This document shows, piece after piece, positions 14,847-26,122 of a DNA stretch of 58,569 bases (position 1 is the stretch's first letter; every line of letters begins with the position of its first letter). Source of the stretch: Clostridia bacterium (GTDB lineage: Bacteria; Bacillota; Clostridia; Oscillospirales; CAG-272); the NCBI GenBank assembly GCA_017518975.1, contig JAFWTH010000037.1:1-58569 (forward strand). The letters are read 5' to 3'. The notes beneath the pieces were generated by a model. The model searched no databases. It had not been told where the DNA came from and saw nothing but the letters and a program-made list of their open reading frames with translations. The position numbers were made by a program, and so were the translations under genes.

Positions 14847-15938
14847 ATGAAAAAAAGGTATCTCATACTCGAATCGGGCCGCGTGTTCGAGGGGGTCGGC
14901 TTCGGCGCGGATCCCTCGCCTGACGGTACGGTCGGCGAGCTCGTATTCACGACCGGAATGTGCGGTTATCTCGAATGCATAACCGACCCGTCGTATTACG
15001 GTCAGATAGTGACGCAGACGTTCCCGATGATCGGAAACTACGGCGTGATCTCCTCCGATTTTGAGGGGTGTCCCGCCCTTTTCGGATACGTCGTCAGGGA
15101 GTGGTGTCCCGCGCCGTCGAATTTTCGTTCCGAAGGCGATATCGACTCGTTCCTCAAAGATCGCGGGATCCCCGGGATCTGCGGAGTCGACACGAGGGAG
15201 ATCACGAAACTGATCCGCGACCGCGGCGTCATGAACGCCGTCATCACGGACGGCGAGCCCGATTTTTCGCTTTATTCGCAGGCGCTTTCGTCATATAAGG
15301 TGCGGGGAGCCGTTCCCGCCGTCACCTCGACGCGCCCGAATCTTTTCCCCGCCGACGGAGACGAGAAGTTCCGCGTCGTCCTGATCGACTACGGCGCGAA
15401 AGCGGGGATAACCGCCGCGCTTCGGGCGCGGGAATGCTCCGTTCTCTCCGTCCCCGCGAACACGGACGCCGAGAGTATCCTCGAGATGAAGCCCGACGGC
15501 ATCATGCTCTCGAACGGACCCGGCGACCCGACGGAAAGGCGCGACTGCATAGAGGAACTCAAAAAGATATTCGGCAGAGTCCCGATTTTCGGTATCTGCC
15601 TCGGCCACCAGCTCCTCGCGCTCTCGACCGGCGCGCTGACGGAAAAACTGAAGTTCGGCCACCGAGGCGCGAATCAGCCCGTCCGCGACGTTAAAAGCGG
15701 CAGAACGTATATCACCTCGCAGAACCACGGCTACGCCGTGAGGGTGGGGTCGCTCCGCCGCGGAACGATGAGTTTTACAAACGCGAACGACGGAACCTGC
15801 GAGGGGATCGACTATGAAGCCGATCTCGCCTTCTCCGTTCAGTTCCACCCCGAGGCGAGAAGCGGCCCGCACGACACGGAGTTTCTTTTCGACCGGTTCG
15901 TACGGATGATGGAGGTGAGACGAAATGCCAAAGGATGA
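14847..15938 (+). CDS. carA: Carbamoyl-phosphate synthase small subunit
   Basis: TDPSYYGQI, LSNGPGDP, GICLGHQ, SQNHGY, QFHPE. Confidence 0.97.
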   Translation: MKKRYLILESGRVFEGVGFGADPSPDGTVGELVFTTGMCGYLECITDPSYYGQIVTQTFPMIGNYGVISSDFEGCPALFGYVVREWCPAPSNFRSEGDIDSFLKDRGIPGICGVDTREITKLIRDRGVMNAVITDGEPDFSLYSQALSSYKVRGAVPAVTSTRPNLFPADGDEKFRVVLIDYGAKAGITAALRARECSVLSVPANTDAESILEMKPDGIMLSNGPGDPTERRDCIEELKKIFGRVPIFGICLGHQLLALSTGALTEKLKFGHRGANQPVRDVKSGRTYITSQNHGYAVRVGSLRRGTMSFTNANDGTCEGIDYEADLAFSVQFHPEARSGPHDTEFLFDRFVRMMEVRRNAKG

Positions 15939-18900
15939 ATCGATCCGCAAGGTGATGGTCATCGGCTCCGGTCCGATCGTCATCGGTCAGGCGGCGGAGT
16001 TCGACTACGCCGGAACGCAGGCGTGCCGCGTCCTCGAAGCGGAGGGGATCGAAACGGTCCTCGTCAACTCCAATCCCGCTACCGTTATGACGGACACCGA
16101 CCTCGCGGACGAGGTATACCTCGAACCGCTCACGGTCGAGACCGTGAAAAGGATAATCAAAAAAGAAAAGCCCGACTGTCTTCTCGCCGGACTCGGCGGA
16201 CAGACGGGGCTGACTCTCGCCGTAAAGCTCTTTGAGGACGGTTTCCTCGACGAGAACGGCGTGCGCCTCATCGGCTCGAACGTCGACGCGATAAAGAAAT
16301 CGGAAGACAGACAGCTGTTCAAGGATACGATGGCGGCGATCGGCGAGCCGACGATCCCGTCCGACACCGCGCACGACGTTGAGAAATCTCTGCGGATCGC
16401 CGAAGAGATCGGATATCCCGTCATCGTCCGCCCCGCGTACACGCTCGGCGGAGGCGGGGGCGGCGTCGCAAACTGCCCCGAAGAACTCGAAACGGTCGCA
16501 GCGGCGGGTATCGCCGCGTCGCCGATCGGTCAGATACTCGTCGAAAAATATATCTACGGCTGGAAAGAAATAGAATTTGAGACGATGCGCGACGGCAAGG
16601 GCAACGTGATCGCGGTCTGCTCGATGGAGAACGTCGACCCGGTCGGCGTCCACACCGGCGACTCCGTCGTCGTCGCACCCGCGCTGACGCTCTCTGACAG
16701 GGAGTATCAGACTCTGCGCAGCGCGTCTCTGAACATCATCTCGGCGCTCGGCATTGTCGGCGGGTGCAACTGTCAGTTCGCCCTCGACCCGGAGAGCTTC
16801 GACTACGCCGTCATCGAGGTCAACCCGCGCGTGTCCAGATCGTCCGCTCTAGCCAGCAAGGCGACCGGTTACCCGATAGCGAAGATCACCGCGAAGATCG
16901 CGCTCGGCTACACGCTCGACGAGATCAAAAACGACGTGACCGGAAAGACGTGCGCCTGCTTCGAGCCCGCGCTCGACTACGTAGTCGTCAAACTCCCGAA
17001 ATGGCCGTTCGACAAGCTCCACGGCTCCTCGCGCAAGCTCGGGACGCAGATGAAGGCGACAGGCGAGGTCATGGCTATCGCGACCTCCTTCCCCGCGGCG
17101 CTCATGAAAGCCGTCCGCGGCGCGGAGATCGGAACGGAAACGCTCGGAATACGCTATTTTGAAAACAAGACGGAAGACGAACTGCTCGAAGCGGTCGGCA
17201 GCTGCGACGACAGACGGCTCTTCGCCGTTTTCGCCGCGCTCAAATCCGGGGTCTCCGTCGAAGAGATCTCAAAGATCACGCGCATCGATCCGTTCTTCGT
17301 ATCCCAGATAAAACGGCTCGCCGATTATGAAAACAGAATATCGGGTCTCTCGCTCGACTCAGCCGATTATCTCGAGGGCAAAAAGCTCGGCTACACCGAC
17401 ACGGCGCTCGACGCCCTCTCGGGATATCCGCTCCCGTGCCACCGCGAGGCGGTCTTCAGGATCGTCGACACGTGCGGAGGCGAGTTCGACGCGGAGACTC
17501 CATACTACTATTCCTCGTACGACGAGGACTGCGAGGCGCGTCACGCCGCGCGCGCTCCGGGAAAGACCGTCGTCGTTCTCGGCTCGGGACCGATCCGCAT
17601 CGGTCAGGGGATCGAGTTCGATTACTCCTCCGTCCATTGCGCAACGACGCTCCGCCGTCTCGGCTACGAGGTCGTCATCATAAACAACAACCCCGAAACG
17701 GTCTCGACCGACTACGACACGGCGGACCGGCTCTACTTCGAGCCGCTGACGCCCGAGGACGTTATGAACGTCGTCGCCGTCGAGGAACCGGTCGGCGTCG
17801 TCGTGGCGTTCGGCGGCCAGACGGCAATAAAACTCACTAAATATCTCGACTCGCGCGGAGTCAGAATTCTCGGCACGTCAGCCGAGGGGATCGACACGGC
17901 GGAGGACCGCGAACGGTTCGACTCCCTGCTCGGTTCGCTCGGTATAAAGCGGCCGCAGGGAATGGGCGTCACCGGGACCGACGAGGCGATACGCGCCGCA
18001 AACGAACTCGGATATCCCGTTCTGCTCCGTCCCTCTTACGTCATCGGCGGGCAGAATATGAGGATAGTCTACTCTGACCGCGAGGTGAGGGAGTATATGG
18101 CTCCGATCCTCGAGGCGGGAGTCGACAGTCCCGTCCTCGTCGATAAATATATGAGCGGGATCGAGCTCGAGCTCGACGTCATCTCCGACGGAGAGGACGT
18201 TCTTATCCCCGGCATAATGGAGCACGTCGAACGGGCGGGAGTCCACTCAGGCGATTCGATCGCCGTGATCCCCGCTTATAAACTGAACGACAAAATGACG
18301 TCGGTCGTCATCAGTCAGGCGACGGCGATCTCGCTCGCGCTCGGAACGCGCGGACTCGTCAACATCCAGCTTCTTATATGGCGCGGCGAACCGTACGTGA
18401 TCGAGGTCAACCCTCGCGCATCGCGCACCGTCCCGTATATCAGCAAAGTCACGGGCGTTCCGATGATCGAGCTTGCGACGCGCGTCATGGTGGGCGAAAA
18501 ACTCGCAGACATGGGGTACGGAACCGGTCTTTACAGAACTCCGCCTTACTTTGCCGTCAAAGTCCCCGTCTTCTCGTTTGAAAAACTGCCCGACGCTTTC
18601 TCCGGTCTCGGACCGGAGATGAAGTCGACGGGCGAGGTGCTCGGGATCGGCAAAGACCTCAACGAAGCGCTCTTCAAGGGAATGCGCTCGGCGGGTCTGC
18701 TCCTTCCGTCCTCTCTGCGGCGCGAGGGAGTCGGTTTCTTCCTGCATGCGGACGAAAAAGACGTCCACGAGCTTATCGACCTTGCAAAAAAACTCGACGA
18801 TCTTCATTTCACGCTATACGCGTCGGAGAGCACCGCGGAGATGATATCGAAACTCGGCGTCAGCGTGAAAGTAGTCGATGAAACGTGCGCCGACGGAAAA

Positions 18901-19974
18901 CTCCTCTCTCTTCTTGACGGCGGGGAGATCAGCTACGTCGTCTATTCCGCGCTCGAGGATGCGGACGACGTCAGGAACTTCGATACGATCCACGCCCGCG
19001 CGATCGCGCTCTCCGTGCCGTGCCTCACGTCGCTCGACACCGCGGAAGCGCTCGCCGACATCATTCTGAGCCGGTACGCCGAGCACAACACGGAGCTCGT
19101 CGACATCAACACGATGAGAAAAGAAAGGATGAAGCTTTCGTTCTCGAAGATGGAGGCGACGGGCGCCGACTATATCGTCATCGACGACCGCGACGGGACG
19201 ATCACGTGTCCCGAATCGCTCTGCATAAAACTCTGCGACCGCCACTACGGCGTCGGCGGGTACGGCATCGCCCTGATAGAGAAGCCGGACGACCCGGAGG
19301 CGCACGTCAGAATGCGTCTGTTCAACAGGGACGGAAGCGAGGGCTTCATCGCAGGGACGGGCATCCGCTCCGTCGCAAAATACGTTTACGACCGCGGGAT
19401 CGCGAAGGAGGACGTCGTCCGGATCGAAACGGCGTCCGGGATCCGTCCCGTCAGCGTCTATACCTCCGACGGCAGAGTCACGATGGCGGGAGCCGGGATG
19501 GGGCGCGCGGAATTCGCGCCCGAGAAGATCCCGTGCACTCTCGACGGGGACGAGATCGTCGACCGGAAGATCAAAATCGCGGGCGGCGAATACCGGGTCA
19601 CCTGCCTTTCCGTCGGCAACCCGCACTGCGTGGTGTTCTGCGACAGGATCGACGACCTCGATCTTGAATCGATCGGACCGAAGTTTGAAAACGACCCGAT
19701 CTTCCCGGAGCGCGTCAACACCGAATTCGTCCGCGTCGTCGACCCGACGACGCTCAGGATGCGCGTCTGGGAGCGCGGCAACGGCGAGACGTTCGCCTGC
19801 GGTACGGGCGCCTGCGCGGCAGTCGCCGCGGCGGTGAAAAACGGCGTCTGCCCGAAGGGCGAGGACATCACCGTCAAAGTCATCGGAGGCGACCTGATCG
19901 TAAACTTCACGGATGAGGAGATCACCCTCTCCGGCGACACGAAGCTCGTCTTCGACGGAGTGACTGAATATTGA
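15925..19974 (+). CDS. carB: Carbamoyl-phosphate synthase large subunit fused to a C-terminal DapF-like domain (from ~19129)
   Basis: GSGPIVIGQAAEFDY, two ATP-grasp halves, MGS-like domain, then FSKM..G.DY, DRHYGVGG, SVGNPHCV, FPERVNTEF, VWERGNGETFACGTG, all in one frame. Confidence 0.95.
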   Translation: MPKDESIRKVMVIGSGPIVIGQAAEFDYAGTQACRVLEAEGIETVLVNSNPATVMTDTDLADEVYLEPLTVETVKRIIKKEKPDCLLAGLGGQTGLTLAVKLFEDGFLDENGVRLIGSNVDAIKKSEDRQLFKDTMAAIGEPTIPSDTAHDVEKSLRIAEEIGYPVIVRPAYTLGGGGGGVANCPEELETVAAAGIAASPIGQILVEKYIYGWKEIEFETMRDGKGNVIAVCSMENVDPVGVHTGDSVVVAPALTLSDREYQTLRSASLNIISALGIVGGCNCQFALDPESFDYAVIEVNPRVSRSSALASKATGYPIAKITAKIALGYTLDEIKNDVTGKTCACFEPALDYVVVKLPKWPFDKLHGSSRKLGTQMKATGEVMAIATSFPAALMKAVRGAEIGTETLGIRYFENKTEDELLEAVGSCDDRRLFAVFAALKSGVSVEEISKITRIDPFFVSQIKRLADYENRISGLSLDSADYLEGKKLGYTDTALDALSGYPLPCHREAVFRIVDTCGGEFDAETPYYYSSYDEDCEARHAARAPGKTVVVLGSGPIRIGQGIEFDYSSVHCATTLRRLGYEVVIINNNPETVSTDYDTADRLYFEPLTPEDVMNVVAVEEPVGVVVAFGGQTAIKLTKYLDSRGVRILGTSAEGIDTAEDRERFDSLLGSLGIKRPQGMGVTGTDEAIRAANELGYPVLLRPSYVIGGQNMRIVYSDREVREYMAPILEAGVDSPVLVDKYMSGIELELDVISDGEDVLIPGIMEHVERAGVHSGDSIAVIPAYKLNDKMTSVVISQATAISLALGTRGLVNIQLLIWRGEPYVIEVNPRASRTVPYISKVTGVPMIELATRVMVGEKLADMGYGTGLYRTPPYFAVKVPVFSFEKLPDAFSGLGPEMKSTGEVLGIGKDLNEALFKGMRSAGLLLPSSLRREGVGFFLHADEKDVHELIDLAKKLDDLHFTLYASESTAEMISKLGVSVKVVDETCADGKLLSLLDGGEISYVVYSALEDADDVRNFDTIHARAIALSVPCLTSLDTAEALADIILSRYAEHNTELVDINTMRKERMKLSFSKMEATGADYIVIDDRDGTITCPESLCIKLCDRHYGVGGYGIALIEKPDDPEAHVRMRLFNRDGSEGFIAGTGIRSVAKYVYDRGIAKEDVVRIETASGIRPVSVYTSDGRVTMAGAGMGRAEFAPEKIPCTLDGDEIVDRKIKIAGGEYRVTCLSVGNPHCVVFCDRIDDLDLESIGPKFENDPIFPERVNTEFVRVVDPTTLRMRVWERGNGETFACGTGACAAVAAAVKNGVCPKGEDITVKVIGGDLIVNFTDEEITLSGDTKLVFDGVTEY

Positions 19975-19978
19975 GAGT

Positions 19979-20005
19979 TTATCCCCCCGCAAAACGGGGG
20001 GATAA
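19979..20005 (+). terminator. Hairpin ending the arg-car operon
   Basis: TTATCCCCCCG-CAAAA-CGGGGGGATAA right after the stop. Confidence 0.7.
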
Positions 20006-20127: not shown

Positions 20128-20156
20128 TTGACTTTCCCGCGGAGGGATGATAAGAT
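20128..20156 (+). promoter_or_regulatory. Sigma-A-type promoter of the lipoprotein/repeat protein/rSAM operon
   Basis: TTGACT (20128)-17 bp-TAAGAT (20151) with TGn extension; GGGAGG RBS before TTG 20189. Confidence 0.65.
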
Positions 20157-20188
20157 AAAAACATAATAAAACCCGGGAGGAAATCGCT

Positions 20189-20986
20189 TTGAAACCGGAA
20201 AAATCGTATCGCGGGACCGTAAAACGCGCGGCGGGGATCGCCCTGACGGCGCTGGCGCTCGCCGCGGCGGGAGGGATCGTTTTGTTCGGACTGTTCGGAT
20301 GTTTCAAAAAAGCGCCTGAGTACAAAATTGACTTCTCTGGGGAGGAGTCGTGGTACGAGGGGGCAAAAAAAACGTACCGCGAGGGAGAGACGGTCACGCT
20401 GTACTATAATCTCATCGCGACGGACACAGACTACAAATTTCTGCTCGACGGAGAACCGATAAACTTCGGTTACGACGACGAACGCGGCTTCGTGATAACG
20501 TTCGCCATGCCCGCGCACGACGTAAAACTCGAGTGCCAAACGAAGAACTCGATGGAGTACGTTCCCGAAGTCGTCCCGGATATCCTTCTTTTCGATTACT
20601 ATTCCGCGACGACGGGAACGGACGGATACGACAGCAGCACGGAGATCACGCTCTCGACTTACTCGGGCGAATCCCACCGCCTGTCCGTTTTCGAAAAAGC
20701 GTCCCCCGACGCTGAGGAAACGAGGACCGATTATCTCGTCCCCGTCGAGTTGTCCGAAAAGTGTTACCGCGCCGTCTTTGAGTACGGTATGAACGAATGG
20801 GCGGGCCGGGACGACCTCGAGCCGATCGACGGCGCGCTCGTCGTTCTTAAATACAGAGAAGGCGACGATTACGTCCGGCTGTCGTCCGACGCCGCGCCGC
20901 CCGGCGGGATCGCCGAGATGGATTCGATCGGCGTCATGCTGAGAGAATACGCGTCCCCGGATTATCTCGAGGAGGGACGGGAATGA
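20189..20986 (+). CDS. Putative lipoprotein or membrane-anchored protein with a B-repeat-like (beta-grasp) domain
   Basis: Basic N-terminus, hydrophobic stretch and LFGC lipobox-like motif; GETVTL...FAMPAHDVKL resembles InlB-B-type repeats. Confidence 0.6.
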   Translation: MKPEKSYRGTVKRAAGIALTALALAAAGGIVLFGLFGCFKKAPEYKIDFSGEESWYEGAKKTYREGETVTLYYNLIATDTDYKFLLDGEPINFGYDDERGFVITFAMPAHDVKLECQTKNSMEYVPEVVPDILLFDYYSATTGTDGYDSSTEITLSTYSGESHRLSVFEKASPDAEETRTDYLVPVELSEKCYRAVFEYGMNEWAGRDDLEPIDGALVVLKYREGDDYVRLSSDAAPPGGIAEMDSIGVMLREYASPDYLEEGRE

Positions 20987-21480
20987 GAGAGAATAAAAAA
21001 GACGGCGGGAAATACCCGTGGATAAAAAGCGTTTTCAAAAAGAGAAAAAAAGACCCCGTACGCGGAGCGGAAGGGGTTTACGCGGGTCCGGACTATTTCA
21101 GGGACGGACCGGGCGAATCGAAAAAAATCTACGCGGGACCCGAGTTTTATAAAAAGAAAGAAGATCCGTCAGACAACTCCCGCCCGGTCGGGGACGTCTA
21201 CGCGGGGCCTGAATTCTTTGAGGGCGAACCGGACGGCCTTGTGAAGGCGATCTACTCCGCTCCGGTATTCCCGGAAAGACCTCAGGAGCCGCCCGTAATG
21301 TGCGTTTACGCGGGACCCGAGTATTTCTCGCAGCGTCGGGACGGCGCTCCGGTCGGCGTGGCGCAGCCGCAGGAAAAAGACTGCGACGGATCTCCGCGCT
21401 GCGCCTTCTGCGGGACACGGACGCCCGACGGCGCGAAATTCTGCCCGGAATGCGGGACCCGTCTGACGAACGATGAGTGA
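20983..21480 (+). CDS. Putative rSAM substrate: five YAGP-type repeats plus C-terminal zinc ribbon
   Basis: GVYAGPDYF, KIYAGPEFY, DVYAGPEFF, AIYSAPVFP, CVYAGPEYF; CAFCG-x9-FCPECG; ATGA overlap with the upstream gene, GGAGGG RBS. Confidence 0.8.
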   Translation: MRENKKDGGKYPWIKSVFKKRKKDPVRGAEGVYAGPDYFRDGPGESKKIYAGPEFYKKKEDPSDNSRPVGDVYAGPEFFEGEPDGLVKAIYSAPVFPERPQEPPVMCVYAGPEYFSQRRDGAPVGVAQPQEKDCDGSPRCAFCGTRTPDGAKFCPECGTRLTNDE

Positions 21481-22525
21481 CCGGATAAAGGGAAGCGAAT
21501 TCCCGTTCCGCCTTCGCTCCTGCGTGTGGGAGATAACCCTCGCGTGCTGTTTCCGGTGCGCATACTGCGGCTCGCGCGGAGGTGTCGCGAGAGAGAACGA
21601 ACTCTCGACGGAGGAGTGTCTTGACGTCGCCGAACAGCTCGCCGATTTGGGCTGCCGCCGCGTCTCCATGATCGGAGGCGAGGTCTTCATGCGTCCCGAC
21701 TGGGAGCAGATCGTCGGCGCGCTGACGTCCCGCGGCGTTATCACGTGCATCATAACGAACGGATTCCGCATGACGGAACCTGTGATCGCCGCCCTGAAGC
21801 GCGTCGGGATCGAATCGGTCGCCGTCTCGATCGACGGGGTCGCCGAGGTTCACGACAAATACCGCCTGGCGGGCAGTTACGAGAGCGCGATGGCTGCGCT
21901 TGACGTCCTCTCCGAGGCGGGGATACCCGTCTCCGTAATCAGCGCGCTCCGCGCGGACAACGCCCCGCGCCTGTCCGAGCTTTACGAAATACTCAAAACG
22001 AAGAATATCTTCGCGTGGCAGATCCAGGCGTGCTCTCCGATGGGCAACGCCGCGGGCGGATCCGTCGACGTCGGATTCGACGCCTCGGAGGTCATAAAAT
22101 TCGTCGCCGAAAACGCGGGACGCGACCCGTTTTATATCGGGATCGCGGACAATATCGGTTACCACACCCCCGAGGAAGCGAAGATCCGCGGGAGGCGCGG
22201 CCTCGTTTTCGAGGGCTGCTCCGCCGGGCTGACAACGCTCGGGATAGACAGCGTCGGAAACGTCCGCGGCTGCGAGTCGATGTACGACGAACGGTTCAAC
22301 GAGGGCAATCTCAGAGAGAGATCGCTCAGAGACATCTGGTGCGATCCCGACACGTTCGCTTACAACAGGAAATTCACTCCCGATATGCTCGCGGGCGGAT
22401 GCGCGGGATGCCCGAAGGGAGACGTATGCGCGGGCGGATGCCGCTCGTACAACTGGTTCACGACGGGAGGACTCTACGAAAACGCGCTTTGCCCCCGCCG
22501 CGGGATAAATGTGAACAACGAATGA
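21473..22525 (+). CDS. Radical SAM/SPASM peptide or protein maturase (splicease-like)
   Basis: VWEITLA-CxxxCxxC-GSRGG, ELSTEE, IGGE, SIDG, ADNIGY, GCSAG...GNVRGC, CxxCx5CxxxC SPASM cysteines; 8-nt overlap with the repeat gene. Confidence 0.9.
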   Translation: MSDRIKGSEFPFRLRSCVWEITLACCFRCAYCGSRGGVARENELSTEECLDVAEQLADLGCRRVSMIGGEVFMRPDWEQIVGALTSRGVITCIITNGFRMTEPVIAALKRVGIESVAVSIDGVAEVHDKYRLAGSYESAMAALDVLSEAGIPVSVISALRADNAPRLSELYEILKTKNIFAWQIQACSPMGNAAGGSVDVGFDASEVIKFVAENAGRDPFYIGIADNIGYHTPEEAKIRGRRGLVFEGCSAGLTTLGIDSVGNVRGCESMYDERFNEGNLRERSLRDIWCDPDTFAYNRKFTPDMLAGGCAGCPKGDVCAGGCRSYNWFTTGGLYENALCPRRGINVNNE

Positions 22526-23666: not shown

Positions 23667-25403
23667 ATGCAAATCAAACTCATACCCGTGGACGACTCCA
23701 ACAGGGACGCCGTTCTGGCACTCTCCGTACGCGAGGATCAGCCCTTCGTCGCACCGAACGACGTCTCTCTGGATCAGGCGGACGAGGCGAACGCAGATAA
23801 CCCCGGCTCGGCGCGCCCGTTTGCGATCTGCGCCGACGGCAGACCGGTCGGCTTCTGTATGTTCGCGGTCGACCCGGAAGACGACGACGAAGACGACAGA
23901 TACTACCTCTGGCGTTTCATGATCGATAGGAACGAACAGGGAAAAGGGTACGGTCAGGCGGCTCTCGAACTGATCGTCCGCTATTTCAGAGAACTCGGGG
24001 CGGACCGGATCCTTCTGTCCACGGAACCGGAAAACGAGCTCGGTCTGCACGTGTATCACAAGGCCGGTTTCAGAGAGACCGGCTGCATCAGCGACGGCGA
24101 GGCCGTCCTGAGACTGTGGCTGACGAAGAAAACGAAAAAGGAGCGGGACGCGTTTTTGTGGTTCGGCGTCAACGTAAAGGATGATCTGCGGATCGCGGAT
24201 AAAAACGGATACGGCGTCAGCGCCGCGATCTCGAACGGAGAGGATCTGCAGACGTACTGCGCCGGAAGCGGCAGATACGGCAGCGACTTCCACGTGAACC
24301 CGGATATGCTCTTTCAGGCGGGATCCGTCAGCAAGCCCGCGTTCGCCCTGACTCTGCTCAGGTACGCCGACAAGGGGAAGATTAATCTCGACGCCGATAT
24401 ATCGGGCGTCGTGCCGGAATACGCGAAGATACCGGTAACGTTCTCCGCGCTGCTGTCCCACACGGCGGGATACAACCTCCACGGCTTCCCGGGATACAGA
24501 GCGGATCGCGAGCCGCTCTCGCTCGAGGACGTTCTGAACGGGAAGGGGATCACGCCGAAACTGCGCAGGATCCGCCCTTACGGGAAACAGTTTATGTATT
24601 CCGGCGGCGGGATCACCCTTGCTGAACTTGCTTTCACCCGCATGACGGGAGAGACGCTGCGCGACGCTTTCAGCAAAGAGGTCGCGGAGCCGCTGGAACT
24701 GACTCGAACGGGTTTTTTCCAGCCCCTTGACGAAGAACTCGTCGGGAACGCCGCGTTCGGCGGCAAACTCGGAGAAAAGGAAGATCCGGCTCACGGATAT
24801 CACTATTACCCCGAACATGCGGCGGCGGGCCTCTGGACCACGCCGACGGAGCTCTGCAGGATCGGGATCGCCCTCTCGCGCAGCTACCGCAAAGGAGGAT
24901 TCCTCAAAAAAGAGTCCGCAAGGCGTATGCTGACGCCGGTAATGGATAATTACGACCTCTGCATTTGCAATTATCGCGGCGACGTGGGGTATCACGACGG
25001 TTGGAACGAGGGCTTCCTGACCGAGTGGATGTTCTCCCTGCGCCGCGACCTGTGCGTGGCGAGCACGTTCAACAGGACCACGGACGAACTCGCCGGGAAA
25101 CATTTTGGGGTCGCGCTCGGGTTGTTCCAGAACGCGGAGGAGGAGATCGCCGAAGACGACGGCGTGAAAATCCCGAAAAAAATCTGCGGAAAATACGAAC
25201 AGAACGTCGCTGACTTCCGTCTTGAGGAGGTCTTTATGAAAGACGGAGACCTGTACGCCCGGATCCTTGGCGAGGACGGCCCCTTCACGAGCGCGCTTTA
25301 TCCCATCGAAAAGAACACGTTCGGCAGAAAAGGCGGTTTTGCAAAGATAACCTTCGGCGACGGCTTCCTCACCGTCAACGGGATCAAGTGTAAGAAGCTG
25401 TAA
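23667..25403 (+). CDS. Fusion of GNAT N-acetyltransferase and serine hydrolase (beta-lactamase class C-like fold)
   Basis: N-terminal WRFMID..EQGKGYG and YHKAGF; C-terminal FQAGSVSK (SxxK), LLSHTAG, YSG, AAAGLWTT, HDG; AAGGAG RBS. Confidence 0.85.
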   Translation: MQIKLIPVDDSNRDAVLALSVREDQPFVAPNDVSLDQADEANADNPGSARPFAICADGRPVGFCMFAVDPEDDDEDDRYYLWRFMIDRNEQGKGYGQAALELIVRYFRELGADRILLSTEPENELGLHVYHKAGFRETGCISDGEAVLRLWLTKKTKKERDAFLWFGVNVKDDLRIADKNGYGVSAAISNGEDLQTYCAGSGRYGSDFHVNPDMLFQAGSVSKPAFALTLLRYADKGKINLDADISGVVPEYAKIPVTFSALLSHTAGYNLHGFPGYRADREPLSLEDVLNGKGITPKLRRIRPYGKQFMYSGGGITLAELAFTRMTGETLRDAFSKEVAEPLELTRTGFFQPLDEELVGNAAFGGKLGEKEDPAHGYHYYPEHAAAGLWTTPTELCRIGIALSRSYRKGGFLKKESARRMLTPVMDNYDLCICNYRGDVGYHDGWNEGFLTEWMFSLRRDLCVASTFNRTTDELAGKHFGVALGLFQNAEEEIAEDDGVKIPKKICGKYEQNVADFRLEEVFMKDGDLYARILGEDGPFTSALYPIEKNTFGRKGGFAKITFGDGFLTVNGIKCKKL

Positions 25404-25435
25404 ACCGGCAGATCCGCTCTGTCCGCAAAAAAGTG

Positions 25436-25464
25436 TTGACAATGATTTGCCGCCGTGATAGAAT
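25436..25464 (+). promoter_or_regulatory. tRNA promoter
   Basis: TTGACA-17 bp-TAGAAT with TGn extension and GC-rich discriminator. Confidence 0.8.
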
Positions 25465-25480
25465 ATAACGGCGGCGAAAA

Positions 25481-25554
25481 GGGCCATTAGCTCAGTTGGT
25501 TAGAGCATCCGGCTCATAACCGGACGGTCCGGGGTTCGAGTCCCTGATGGCCCA
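25481..25554 (+). tRNA. tRNA with CAT anticodon, most likely tRNA-Ile2 (lysidine); CCA not encoded
   Basis: Acceptor GGGCCAT/ATGGCCC-A, D-arm AGCTCAGTTGGTTAGAGC, anticodon arm TCCGG-CTCATAA-CCGGA, T-loop GTTCGAGTC. Confidence 0.93.
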
Positions 25555-25559
25555 CACAT

Positions 25560-25598
25560 AAAAGGATTGCTGTCTTGACAAAGACAGCAACCCTTTTA
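25560..25598 (+). terminator. Terminator after the tRNA
   Basis: AAAAGGATTGCTGTCTT-GAC-AAAGACAGCAACCCTTTT. Confidence 0.8.
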
Positions 25599-25629
25599 TC
25601 TACTTTACGCGAAAGGATTCATTCTCAAT

Positions 25630-25977
25630 ATGAAAAGAAGACACTTAATATGTTTTACTCTTCTTGCATTTCTAATAGTCATGTTATGCGCAGGCTGTGC
25701 AAATCAGAGACCGCGAGATGAATTAATATCATCGATTACTTCTCCGGATGGGATTCATATTATGAATATTTACAGGAATAACGGTGGAGCTACAGTCGAT
25801 TGGTCTACGACCATCTCTATTCAAAAAGTCGGAGCTTCGACGGAAAGAAACATATATTTCCATTACCATGAAGAGAATCCATATGAGGCAGTATGGGTAG
25901 ACAATGACACGGTCAGGGTCAATGGATTGGAATTGAATATTTACAAAGACTATTATGAATCATTCAACCGCAAATAA
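25630..25977 (+). CDS. Small AT-rich lipoprotein, DUF5412-like
   Basis: Signal peptide ending CAGC; SPDG, NGGAT, RNIYF, VWVDNDTVRVNG motifs. Confidence 0.7.
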   Translation: MKRRHLICFTLLAFLIVMLCAGCANQRPRDELISSITSPDGIHIMNIYRNNGGATVDWSTTISIQKVGASTERNIYFHYHEENPYEAVWVDNDTVRVNGLELNIYKDYYESFNRK

Positions 25978-26122
25978 TAATTGGATGCTCGGCTCATAAT
26001 ACCGAATAAAGATACTGCCGATTTTTTCCCTTGTGCAGATAAACTACAATCTTCGGAAGAAACATGCAGACGTTACGAAATTTAACGATAGTCCCCTTTT
26101 TGTTGAAATAGCAATCTTTAGC

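Follow-up and report, generated by a model that had tools for sequence, protein, structure and literature searches.

Is a tyrosine-repeat protein that is encoded directly ahead of a radical S-adenosylmethionine (SAM) enzyme the substrate of that enzyme, and if so, what would be done to its tyrosines? The question is raised by positions 20128-22525 of a 58,569-nucleotide stretch of DNA from a rumen-dwelling Clostridia bacterium (contig JAFWTH010000037.1), referred to here in its full length as the window. Three open reading frames (ORFs) are called on the forward strand: orf1 (20189-20986; 265 amino acids, TTG start), orf2 (20983-21480; 165 amino acids), which is the probable substrate, and orf3 (21473-22525; 350 amino acids), a radical SAM/SPASM enzyme. 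A first reading, made from the sequence alone, had taken them for a three-part system in which a lipoprotein accompanies a repeat substrate and a maturase of the splicease group, which excises tyramine at X-Y-G sites. The comparisons described below support a smaller unit. Judged by its sequence, the orf3-orf2 pair is related to, yet separate from, the enzymes that cut tyrosine out of protein backbones, and it appears to be a real, strongly conserved and unnamed pair in which a SPASM maturase of a splicease-related radiation is matched with a new site on protein-level substrates.

Conservation of the enzyme and repeat protein pair

The pairing of the two genes was followed through related loci. 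When one genome per species was scanned with orf3, 119 stretches matched; a relative is encoded in 81 of these, of which the top 80 were retained as loci. Their hosts are nearly all rumen or gut Clostridia, with enzymes 58-92% identical to orf3, apart from one Chlorobium outlier at 41%. Partner proteins were sought among same-strand ORFs ending between 400 nucleotides upstream of the radical SAM start and 80 nucleotides inside it, and the motif-richest ORF was kept; 79 of the 80 loci are assessable in this way, the remaining one beginning with the radical SAM gene itself. The upstream ORF carries at least one copy of the motif Y[ASG][GAPS]P in 76 of these 79 loci and at least two copies in 73, whereas none of the 604 other ORFs of at least 90 amino acids in the same loci has two or more copies and only 8 have one. 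Homologs of orf3 are thus nearly always flanked by genes with repeats of this kind, as the first reading had expected, and the enzyme and its tyrosine-repeat neighbor form a conserved pair. The exceptions are a locus with a short ORF carrying K-K-Y-P-F-N and one V-Y-N-G-P (L009), a locus in which nothing was found (L068), and the Chlorobium locus (L076).

No third gene accompanies the pair. When 729 ORFs of the 81 loci were clustered, no neighbor apart from the radical SAM enzyme and the repeat protein was present in more than 8 loci, and no RiPP recognition element (RRE), peptidase, or exporter was conserved beside the pair, which agrees with what had been seen in the window. The radical SAM genes themselves fell into two clusters, one covering 67 loci and the other 13; at the latter loci, the gene was apparently displaced by a longer antisense frame when ORFs were chosen greedily. 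The conserved unit is therefore made up of two genes, not three.

The unit is also sparsely distributed. Within a 400-genome sample of the class, orf3 has matches at E≤1e-80 in 6 of the 399 genomes scored, including the window's own, and the cassette is therefore patchy. Apart from the window's own, these matches comprise four orthologs with 57-66% identity and a 42% relative in genome G081. A profile of orf2-type proteins (alignment A2) matches 17 of the 400 genomes at E≤1e-6. Besides the window's own genome (G000), only the four ortholog genomes have repeat-covering matches at E≤1e-10, and each such match adjoins a radical SAM gene. Matches in the other 12 genomes range from E 1e-7 to 1e-8, and in eleven of these they cover the zinc-ribbon end of the model only. 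Two profile matches in genome G256 reach into the repeat part; one was inspected and is without the motif. Two of the four ortholog genomes hold two motif proteins that flank the enzyme (L091 in G278 and L094 in G172), one with a zinc ribbon and the other with an acidic tail or cut at the contig end.

Because of this gene pairing and the invariant tyrosine of the repeats, it is very probable that orf2 is the substrate of orf3 and that the motif tyrosine is the target.

Tyrosine modules of the partner protein

The orf2 protein is rich in Pro, Gly, Lys, and Glu and contains five tyrosine-centered repeats, as had been read from the window, four of them exact Y-A-G-P and one Y-S-A-P, so that all fit [VI]-Y-[AS]-[GA]-P. 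Along the forward strand, the modules are VYAGPDYF (21076-21099), IYAGPEFY (21127-21150), VYAGPEFF (21196-21219), the degenerate IYSAPVFP (21250-21273), and VYAGPEYF (21304-21327). The fifth is the best conserved, with Y-A-G-P invariant in alignment A2. Ahead of the modules on the same strand is a Y-P-W element (residues 11-13; 21013-21021) that is invariant or nearly so in close homologs. It belongs to an N-terminal K-Y-P-W, where P12 is invariant and Y11, W13, and K6 are conserved at 90% or more in alignment A2, and K-K-Y-P-W-N-K is nearly invariant among the close subfamily of orf2. The protein is completed by a forward-strand zinc ribbon, CxxC-x10-CxxC, at residues 140-161 (21400-21453; PF13240, E 1.3e-7). 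Six longer relatives are extended by nothing but further repeats and zinc ribbons, and source records name orf2-type proteins only as "hypothetical" or "zinc ribbon domain-containing protein."

Site statistics were taken over 330 modules in 77 partner proteins, with Tyr and Pro(+3) fixed by the search pattern. Val occupies position -1 in 295 modules, Ala position +1 in 319 (with Gly in another 10: V-Y-G-G-P, a canonical X-Y-G site), and Gly position +2 in 292. Beyond Pro(+3) follow E, D, or P, then Y, F, or M, then F or M. The number of modules per partner ranges between 1 and 10 (median 4); a zinc ribbon is found in 68 of the 77, and a Y-P element in 73. The Y-A-G-P repeats of the first reading are real, and the site proposed there as X-Y-A-G-P can be refined: it would be better written V-Y-x-G-P-(E/D/Q)-(Y/F)-(F/Y), together with a second, Y-P element.

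Placement of orf3 among radical SAM/SPASM enzymes

The initial assignment of orf3 as a radical SAM enzyme with a complete SPASM cysteine set is borne out by motifs and Pfam alike (Radical_SAM PF04055, 91.2 bits, cut-off 29.5; SPASM PF13186, 31.1 bits, cut-off 21.5). The CxxxCxxC motif for the radical-SAM [4Fe-4S] cluster is located at residues 25-32 (21545-21568, forward strand), and all three of its cysteines (C25, C29, and C32) are invariant throughout alignment A1. The SPASM motif CxxCx5Cx3C spans residues 310-323 (22400-22441, forward strand; C310, C313, C319, and C323), and C249, C267, and C340 complete the seven-cysteine set. The radical SAM core begins at about residue 18, leaving no space for an RRE domain, and Pfam gives no PqqD match in orf1-orf3.

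Among curated NCBIfam models, the splicease model TIGR04103 matches orf3 best, at 242.9 bits (243.4 in a whole-genome search), below its cut-off of 725. We take this model to be the same as IPR026482. The second-best match is TIGR03913, the "GDL motif peptide-associated" maturases (218.8 bits, cut-off 591.75), followed by MftC (TIGR03962; 129.8 bits, cut-off 265), NirJ (123.1 bits, cut-off 515.45), TIGR04133 (121.8 bits, cut-off 425), AhbD (118.9 bits, cut-off 500), and PqqE (94 bits). PlpX, the first characterized splicease, is placed in IPR026482 (PMC11002830). The models for heme d1 and heme b radical SAM enzymes (NirJ and AhbC/D) lie together at 98-123 bits against cut-offs of 500-650; the two splicease-side models score far above them, as had been anticipated. 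The grouping with Ahb/NirJ that was considered as an alternative placement is rejected on these scores, on the position of NirJ as a long outgroup branch, and on its lack of the signature motifs.

These signatures, WE(I/L)TL, HCGS, IGGE, WQxQ, PMGNA, (D/N)N(I/V)GY, and GCxAG, are common to orf3, a Nostoc TIGR04103 protein, and Azospirillum TIGR03913 proteins in the alignment. The shorter set named in the sequence-only reading, VWEITL..C...C..CGS, IGGE, and (D/N)NIGY, is shared by the Nostoc TIGR04103 and the TIGR03913 proteins and missing from NirJ. The reference proteins were drawn from plasmid records, and the Nostoc protein, labeled "nif11-class peptide radical SAM maturase 3" by the Prokaryotic Genome Annotation Pipeline, stood in for the PlpX family. 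It is 35.6% identical to orf3, compared with about 34% for the Azospirillum "GDL motif peptide-associated" maturases and 25.7% for NirJ.

An exhaustive HMMER search with orf3 returned 417 cluster representatives at E≤1e-30. Ten representatives were scanned, of which eight score about 210-311 bits on TIGR04103 and/or TIGR03913 and two fall below E 1e-60 on both; none reaches either cut-off. From these matches, the surrounding radical SAM radiation appears wide and mostly unnamed. Two trees were made, a FastTree of 161 rows (13 of 150 representatives, under 320 amino acids, were dropped) and an IQ-TREE quick search of 59 hand-picked rows and 350 columns under LG+C20+F+G4. Both agree that the window's enzyme family is a clade of its own, with 14 rows and a support of 99 in the approximate likelihood ratio test (SH-aLRT). 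A sister clade of 8 rows (99) joins it in a 23-row clade (95), and the next clade out, of 28 rows (95), includes the Chlorobium protein.

In a protein collection clustered at 90% identity, orf3 has 1442 relatives at E≤0.001, the best 120 of which are 66-100% identical to the query. Where sources are named, they are ruminant or human gut material, and the records label these proteins merely "radical SAM protein." No fusion of a substrate to the enzyme is found among the long representatives, which include a double radical SAM protein, a chimeric-looking ABC-ATPase/radical SAM piece, and others. A role in defense was also considered and rejected, as PADLOC gives orf3 just a weak generic viperin likeness (54 bits) and orf1 and orf2 nothing.

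Sister clade and neighboring clades

The sister clade provides a second view of the pairing. In G081, the enzyme shares 49-50% identity with representatives P0127 and P0126, and two proteins are encoded after it. The first has A-Y-P-E-N-Y and two C-terminal L/I-Y-G-P-P-D-F modules, and the second has D-Y-P-E-N-F and ends in I-Y-G-T-A-L. When metagenomes were scanned with this clade, 260 stretches matched, and 41 loci were obtained from them. With a broader module pattern, 34 of the 41 have an adjacent same-strand module ORF, compared with 17 of 1321 non-adjacent ORFs. Doubt attaches to two of these 34 loci: in L108 the pattern matches inside a 570-amino-acid enzyme-like ORF, and an 89-amino-acid downstream ORF is the better candidate, while in L133 the match is about 1 kb away.

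The partners vary widely in format. They include small lipoproteins with Q-Y-P-S-T-A-E and V-Y-F-G-P-Q-Y-F, zinc-ribbon peptides with V-Y-F-G-P-Q, proteins with V-Y-Y-G-P-D-Y-Y, and human-gut partners of about 53 amino acids that have a single module and end in M-A-V-Y-A-A-P. Y-P-x-x elements are present in sister-clade partners as well. One zinc-ribbon partner carries V-Y-G-G-P-D-Y-F (L136), and its enzyme nests inside the window's family. The Y-P element plus V-Y-x-G-P is the common denominator of these proteins and resembles a portable tag on carriers that are otherwise unrelated. As traced here in trees and gene neighborhoods, the proposed V-Y-x-G-P-associated radical SAM/SPASM clade is monophyletic and has module-bearing neighbors.

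Lipoprotein-type signal peptides, such as L-S-F-G-K-C and T-V-A-G-C, are seen on sister-clade partners (L109 3299-3493; L111 2582-2773; L116 2999-3490; L118 3107-3490; L112 1506-1868), and modified modules would therefore reach the cell surface. The window differs in having a separate lipoprotein-like gene upstream instead of a lipoprotein substrate. Both arrangements recall TIGR04133 ("rSAM_w_lipo"), a radical SAM/SPASM family whose name ties it to a lipoprotein partner, but at 122 bits against a cut-off of 425, orf3 is not a member.

In the next clade out, which holds Chlorobium and metagenome relatives, the upstream proteins repeat approximately (I/F)-Y-L-T-(S/D)-(W/E)-Q and end in G-x-I-x-F-(H/E) (L076 4485-4793; L120 39-179; L144 2908-3285). 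Each clade of the radiation seems to have its own tyrosine motif. A plasmid record of Agathobacter rectalis (L084 3007-5438) encodes a 36.7%-identical radical SAM enzyme of another clade followed by a major facilitator superfamily transporter; the 480-nucleotide gap upstream of that enzyme showed no small ORF with the motif.

Tyramine excision as the leading candidate chemistry

It is proposed that orf3 and orf2 would act as a self-contained two-gene protein-modification cassette. Since orf3 is without an RRE domain, it probably binds orf2 through the Y-P element, the modules, or both. The CxxxCxxC cluster would reductively cleave SAM to a 5'-deoxyadenosyl radical, and in each V-Y-x-G-P module the invariant tyrosine would be attacked by this radical. 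The leading candidate for what follows, put forward tentatively, is excision of the splicease type. A tyramine equivalent (C8H9NO, -135.07 Da) would be removed, and the Val carbonyl would be joined to the former Tyr carbonyl to give alpha-keto-beta-valine, a ketoamide, at up to five sites of an intact protein. With no leader cleavage and no coupled export gene, the product would therefore stay a protein. In the zinc-ribbon format of the window it would remain in the cytoplasm, whereas the lipoprotein format of the sister clade would place it outside the cell on a lipid anchor. Its possible role would be that of a multivalent electrophilic or protease-trapping protein, a role suggested by the reported inhibition of serine and cysteine proteases by ketoamide spliceotides (PMC11626197).

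Several observations put splicing first. The splicease model and its sister score best of all, the signatures of the active-site region are shared with splicease-clade proteins, and canonical X-Y-G sites exist inside the family (V-Y-G-G-P) and in the sister clade (L/I-Y-G-P-P). Pro at Y+3 likewise has counterparts, as the Nostoc TIGR04103 precursor ends in L-Y-G-L-P-P-E-L-F and the PlpA splice tag is given as P-L-Y-G-L-P-I (PMC10533398). The missing RRE and Y protein would be no obstacle, because both the splicing of proteins independently of a leader and binary spliceases that do without a Y protein have been described (PMC11414181).

A further reason comes from the TIGR03913 systems, in whose precursors an x-Y-G, x-Y-A, or x-Y-M site lies close to the N-terminus. 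In all eight DUF1843 "GDL motif" peptides found upstream of TIGR03913-type enzymes, the tyrosine of such a site falls within the first ~20 residues (peptide loci L083 2281-2736; L087 1647-2360; L088 525-1240), which suggests the same tyrosine-directed chemistry in these systems. Because these partners have x-Y-A and x-Y-M beside x-Y-G, an Ala after Tyr does occur in nature next to the splicease clade. Like the window's pair, these systems are binary, with precursor genes directly upstream. They differ in that their partners are helical peptides with one site and their hosts are Proteobacteria and Bacteroidota. Membership of orf3 in TIGR03913 is not upheld, as the enzyme scores below the cut-off and outside the clade, and orf2 has no DUF1843 match.

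Compared with PlpX/PcpX, the type I spliceotide maturases of TIGR04103, the pair has the radical SAM/SPASM architecture and signature motifs in common, as well as several sites per substrate, each centered on Tyr with a hydrophobic residue before it and small residues plus Pro after it. It differs in having no Y protein and no Nif11/NHLP leader (orf2 has no such match in NCBIfam or Pfam), in the site, V-Y-A-G-P against X-Y-G, in a substrate that combines repeats with a zinc ribbon, and in its rumen and gut clostridial hosts.

A number of points weigh against splicing. The labeled TIGR04103 and TIGR03913 proteins group together in a clade of their own, with an SH-like support of 100, that excludes orf3's family; with this separation, found in both trees, and a score of 243 bits against 725, the original placement of orf3 with the PlpX/PcpX family is not supported, and the enzyme lies outside the validated splicease clade. 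The C-terminal third also differs, with CAGGCRSYN.F in orf3 against CRGGCTWTAHVFF..NNPYCHHR in the reference proteins, and the 60-160-amino-acid C-terminal extension of the latter is missing. Some 150 representatives of the radiation, at roughly 200-310 bits, are as far from TIGR04103 and TIGR03913 as orf3 is, and the rank of a model alone is therefore a weak guide to chemistry. The residue after the module tyrosine is overwhelmingly Ala, not Gly, and is Phe or Tyr in the sister clade. Finally, known spliceases tolerate various residues at X, unlike the near-invariant Val at -1, which would suit a Val-requiring reaction equally.

Alternative explanations

Close behind splicing, and somewhat less probable, is another tyrosine-centered radical reaction of the same enzyme on the same substrate. 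Candidates are a C-C or C-O cross-link (-2.016 Da per site), for instance from Tyr to Pro(+3) over the turn formed by Y-x-G-P or from Val C-beta to Tyr, epimerization, which brings no mass change, and cleavage at Tyr C-alpha/C-beta. Most characterized SPASM peptide maturases form cross-links, and the best solved relative of orf3 by sequence is the thioether-forming SkfB (E 6.7e-21), while no splicease structure surfaced among solved structures in the same search. The module itself speaks for such a reaction in that V(-1), G(+2), and P(+3) are conserved like Tyr while +1 varies (A, G, F, or Y), a pattern that would suit a turn-forming macrocycle or a Val-dependent step, and the exclusion of orf3 from the splicease clade points the same way. 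On the other hand, Gly(+2) has no C-beta, so that the usual three-residue cyclophane pattern is unsuited to it, and the canonical X-Y-G sites in both clades speak for splicing. MftC, the third-best model at 130 bits, is a SPASM enzyme that acts on the C-terminal Val-Tyr of MftA, decarboxylating it. This recalls the module's own Val-Tyr pair, but the MftC cut-off is not reached, the splicease model and its sister lead the list by a margin of about 110 bits, no mft-type neighbors are conserved, and MftC requires a C-terminal Tyr, while orf2-type sites are internal and repeated.

It is improbable that orf2 serves as a precursor holding many copies of a small tyrosine-derived molecule, such as a cofactor or signal, from which housekeeping peptidases would release the modified V-Y as in the pyrroloquinoline quinone (PQQ) and mycofactocin pathways. 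PqqE and MftC are SPASM enzymes acting on Tyr-containing peptides, both models match orf3, the number of modules per protein varies, as a precursor's would, and the human-gut variants are short peptides with one C-terminal module. Against this reading, the conserved neighborhood of the pair includes no peptidase, carrier, or further tailoring gene; the modules are borne by structured proteins with zinc ribbons, lipoprotein signals, or helical domains; and the flanking P-E-Y-F is conserved too, needlessly so for a small excised product.

The least probable reading, very unlikely in our view, is that orf2 merely assists, as a scaffold, regulator, or metal-binding partner, an enzyme acting elsewhere, for example on a tetrapyrrole (Ahb/NirJ-like) or a metabolite, since, although adjacency and translational coupling are no proof of a substrate relation and the NirJ and AhbD models do score, they reach just a quarter of their cut-offs (515 and 500) and half the bits of the top matches, NirJ stands apart in tree and signatures, no heme or cofactor genes are conserved nearby, and the short tyrosine module is the sole partner feature kept across both clades, whatever the carrier domain.

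An analogy for modification at the level of whole proteins can be found in the anaerobic sulfatase-maturating enzymes (anSME), SPASM enzymes that edit a short motif in whole proteins with no leader or export genes. They differ from orf3 in motif and chemistry, and they are not among the 25 best NCBIfam matches listed for it. The fullest form of the proposal, in which Y-P plus V-Y-x-G-P would be a leader-independent natural "splice tag" on unrelated carriers (zinc-ribbon proteins, surface lipoproteins, and helical proteins), through which a stand-alone radical SAM enzyme would alter the backbone at many sites and give gut and rumen anaerobes whole proteins with electrophilic alpha-keto-beta-valine, is somewhat more speculative and, taken as a whole, less likely than not.

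Genomic context in the window

Upstream of the pair, orf1 has a hydrophobic N-terminal segment and an L-F-G-C lipobox-like site. It has no match in Pfam, NCBIfam, or PADLOC, and its relatives in the protein Atlas are "hypothetical protein" clusters only. By tblastn, orf1 recurs in 5 of the 80 related loci, once as a 27-amino-acid fragment and once downstream on the opposite strand. It is a lineage-specific neighbor, incidental or accessory, outside the conserved core, and the suggestion that a lipoprotein gene is a component of the system is not sustained.

The three ORFs are coupled as first described, orf1 and orf2 overlapping by 4 nucleotides (ATGA) and orf2 and orf3 by 8 (ATGAGTGA), and they sit between a carB-dapF fusion upstream and fsa downstream, the latter encoding fructose-6-phosphate aldolase (260.5 bits, cut-off 214). 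The promoter predicted ahead of the trio can be matched to a sigma-70-like TTGACT-17-TAAGAT on the forward strand (20128-20156), a consensus match alone, with 9 of 12 positions and a TG before the -10 element. By pattern match alone as well, the upstream gene ends at a hairpin followed by a run of T (19979-20005). A few 151-nucleotide contigs from two poly-A RNA libraries of a single study map on orf1, a weak expression signal for which DNA carry-over is possible; one identical RNA contig (20926-21076) bridges the orf1/orf2 junction, with the same possibility of carry-over.

The upstream gene is a single 1349-amino-acid ORF (15925-19974, forward strand) in which CarB (1385 bits) is fused to a complete DapF, a diaminopimelate epimerase (241.7 bits, residues 1072-1347), an unusual joining of pyrimidine/arginine and lysine/peptidoglycan enzymes. 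A foreign origin of the cassette was considered and rejected, as its GC content of 0.55-0.64 resembles the flanks. Further downstream, at 25400-25999, the GC content drops to 0.42 from 0.55-0.64 over the preceding 10 kb, and this dip may be the edge of a foreign segment.

Implications

A motif-string literature search by title and abstract returned no relevant publication on V-Y-A-G-P with radical SAM, and a search for a spliceotide system of this type in Firmicutes found none by title or abstract. The survey of Scott et al. 2022 (Chem 8:2659), which according to papers citing it reportedly covers 27 characterized and 939 predicted splicease systems, may list the family.

The enzyme family is large, and gut-associated where a source is named, and a cultured carrier exists in the isolate Ruminococcaceae bacterium P7 (L070). 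If orf3 carries out a different chemistry, the pair may represent a new tyrosine-centered radical modification, one of proteins rather than peptides. If orf3 splices, V-Y-x-G-P would have to be added to X-Y-G as an accepted site, a compact tag system needing one enzyme only would become available for protein engineering, and the installation of beta-amino acids in the backbone would extend from peptide natural products to the multi-site modification of whole proteins in anaerobes.

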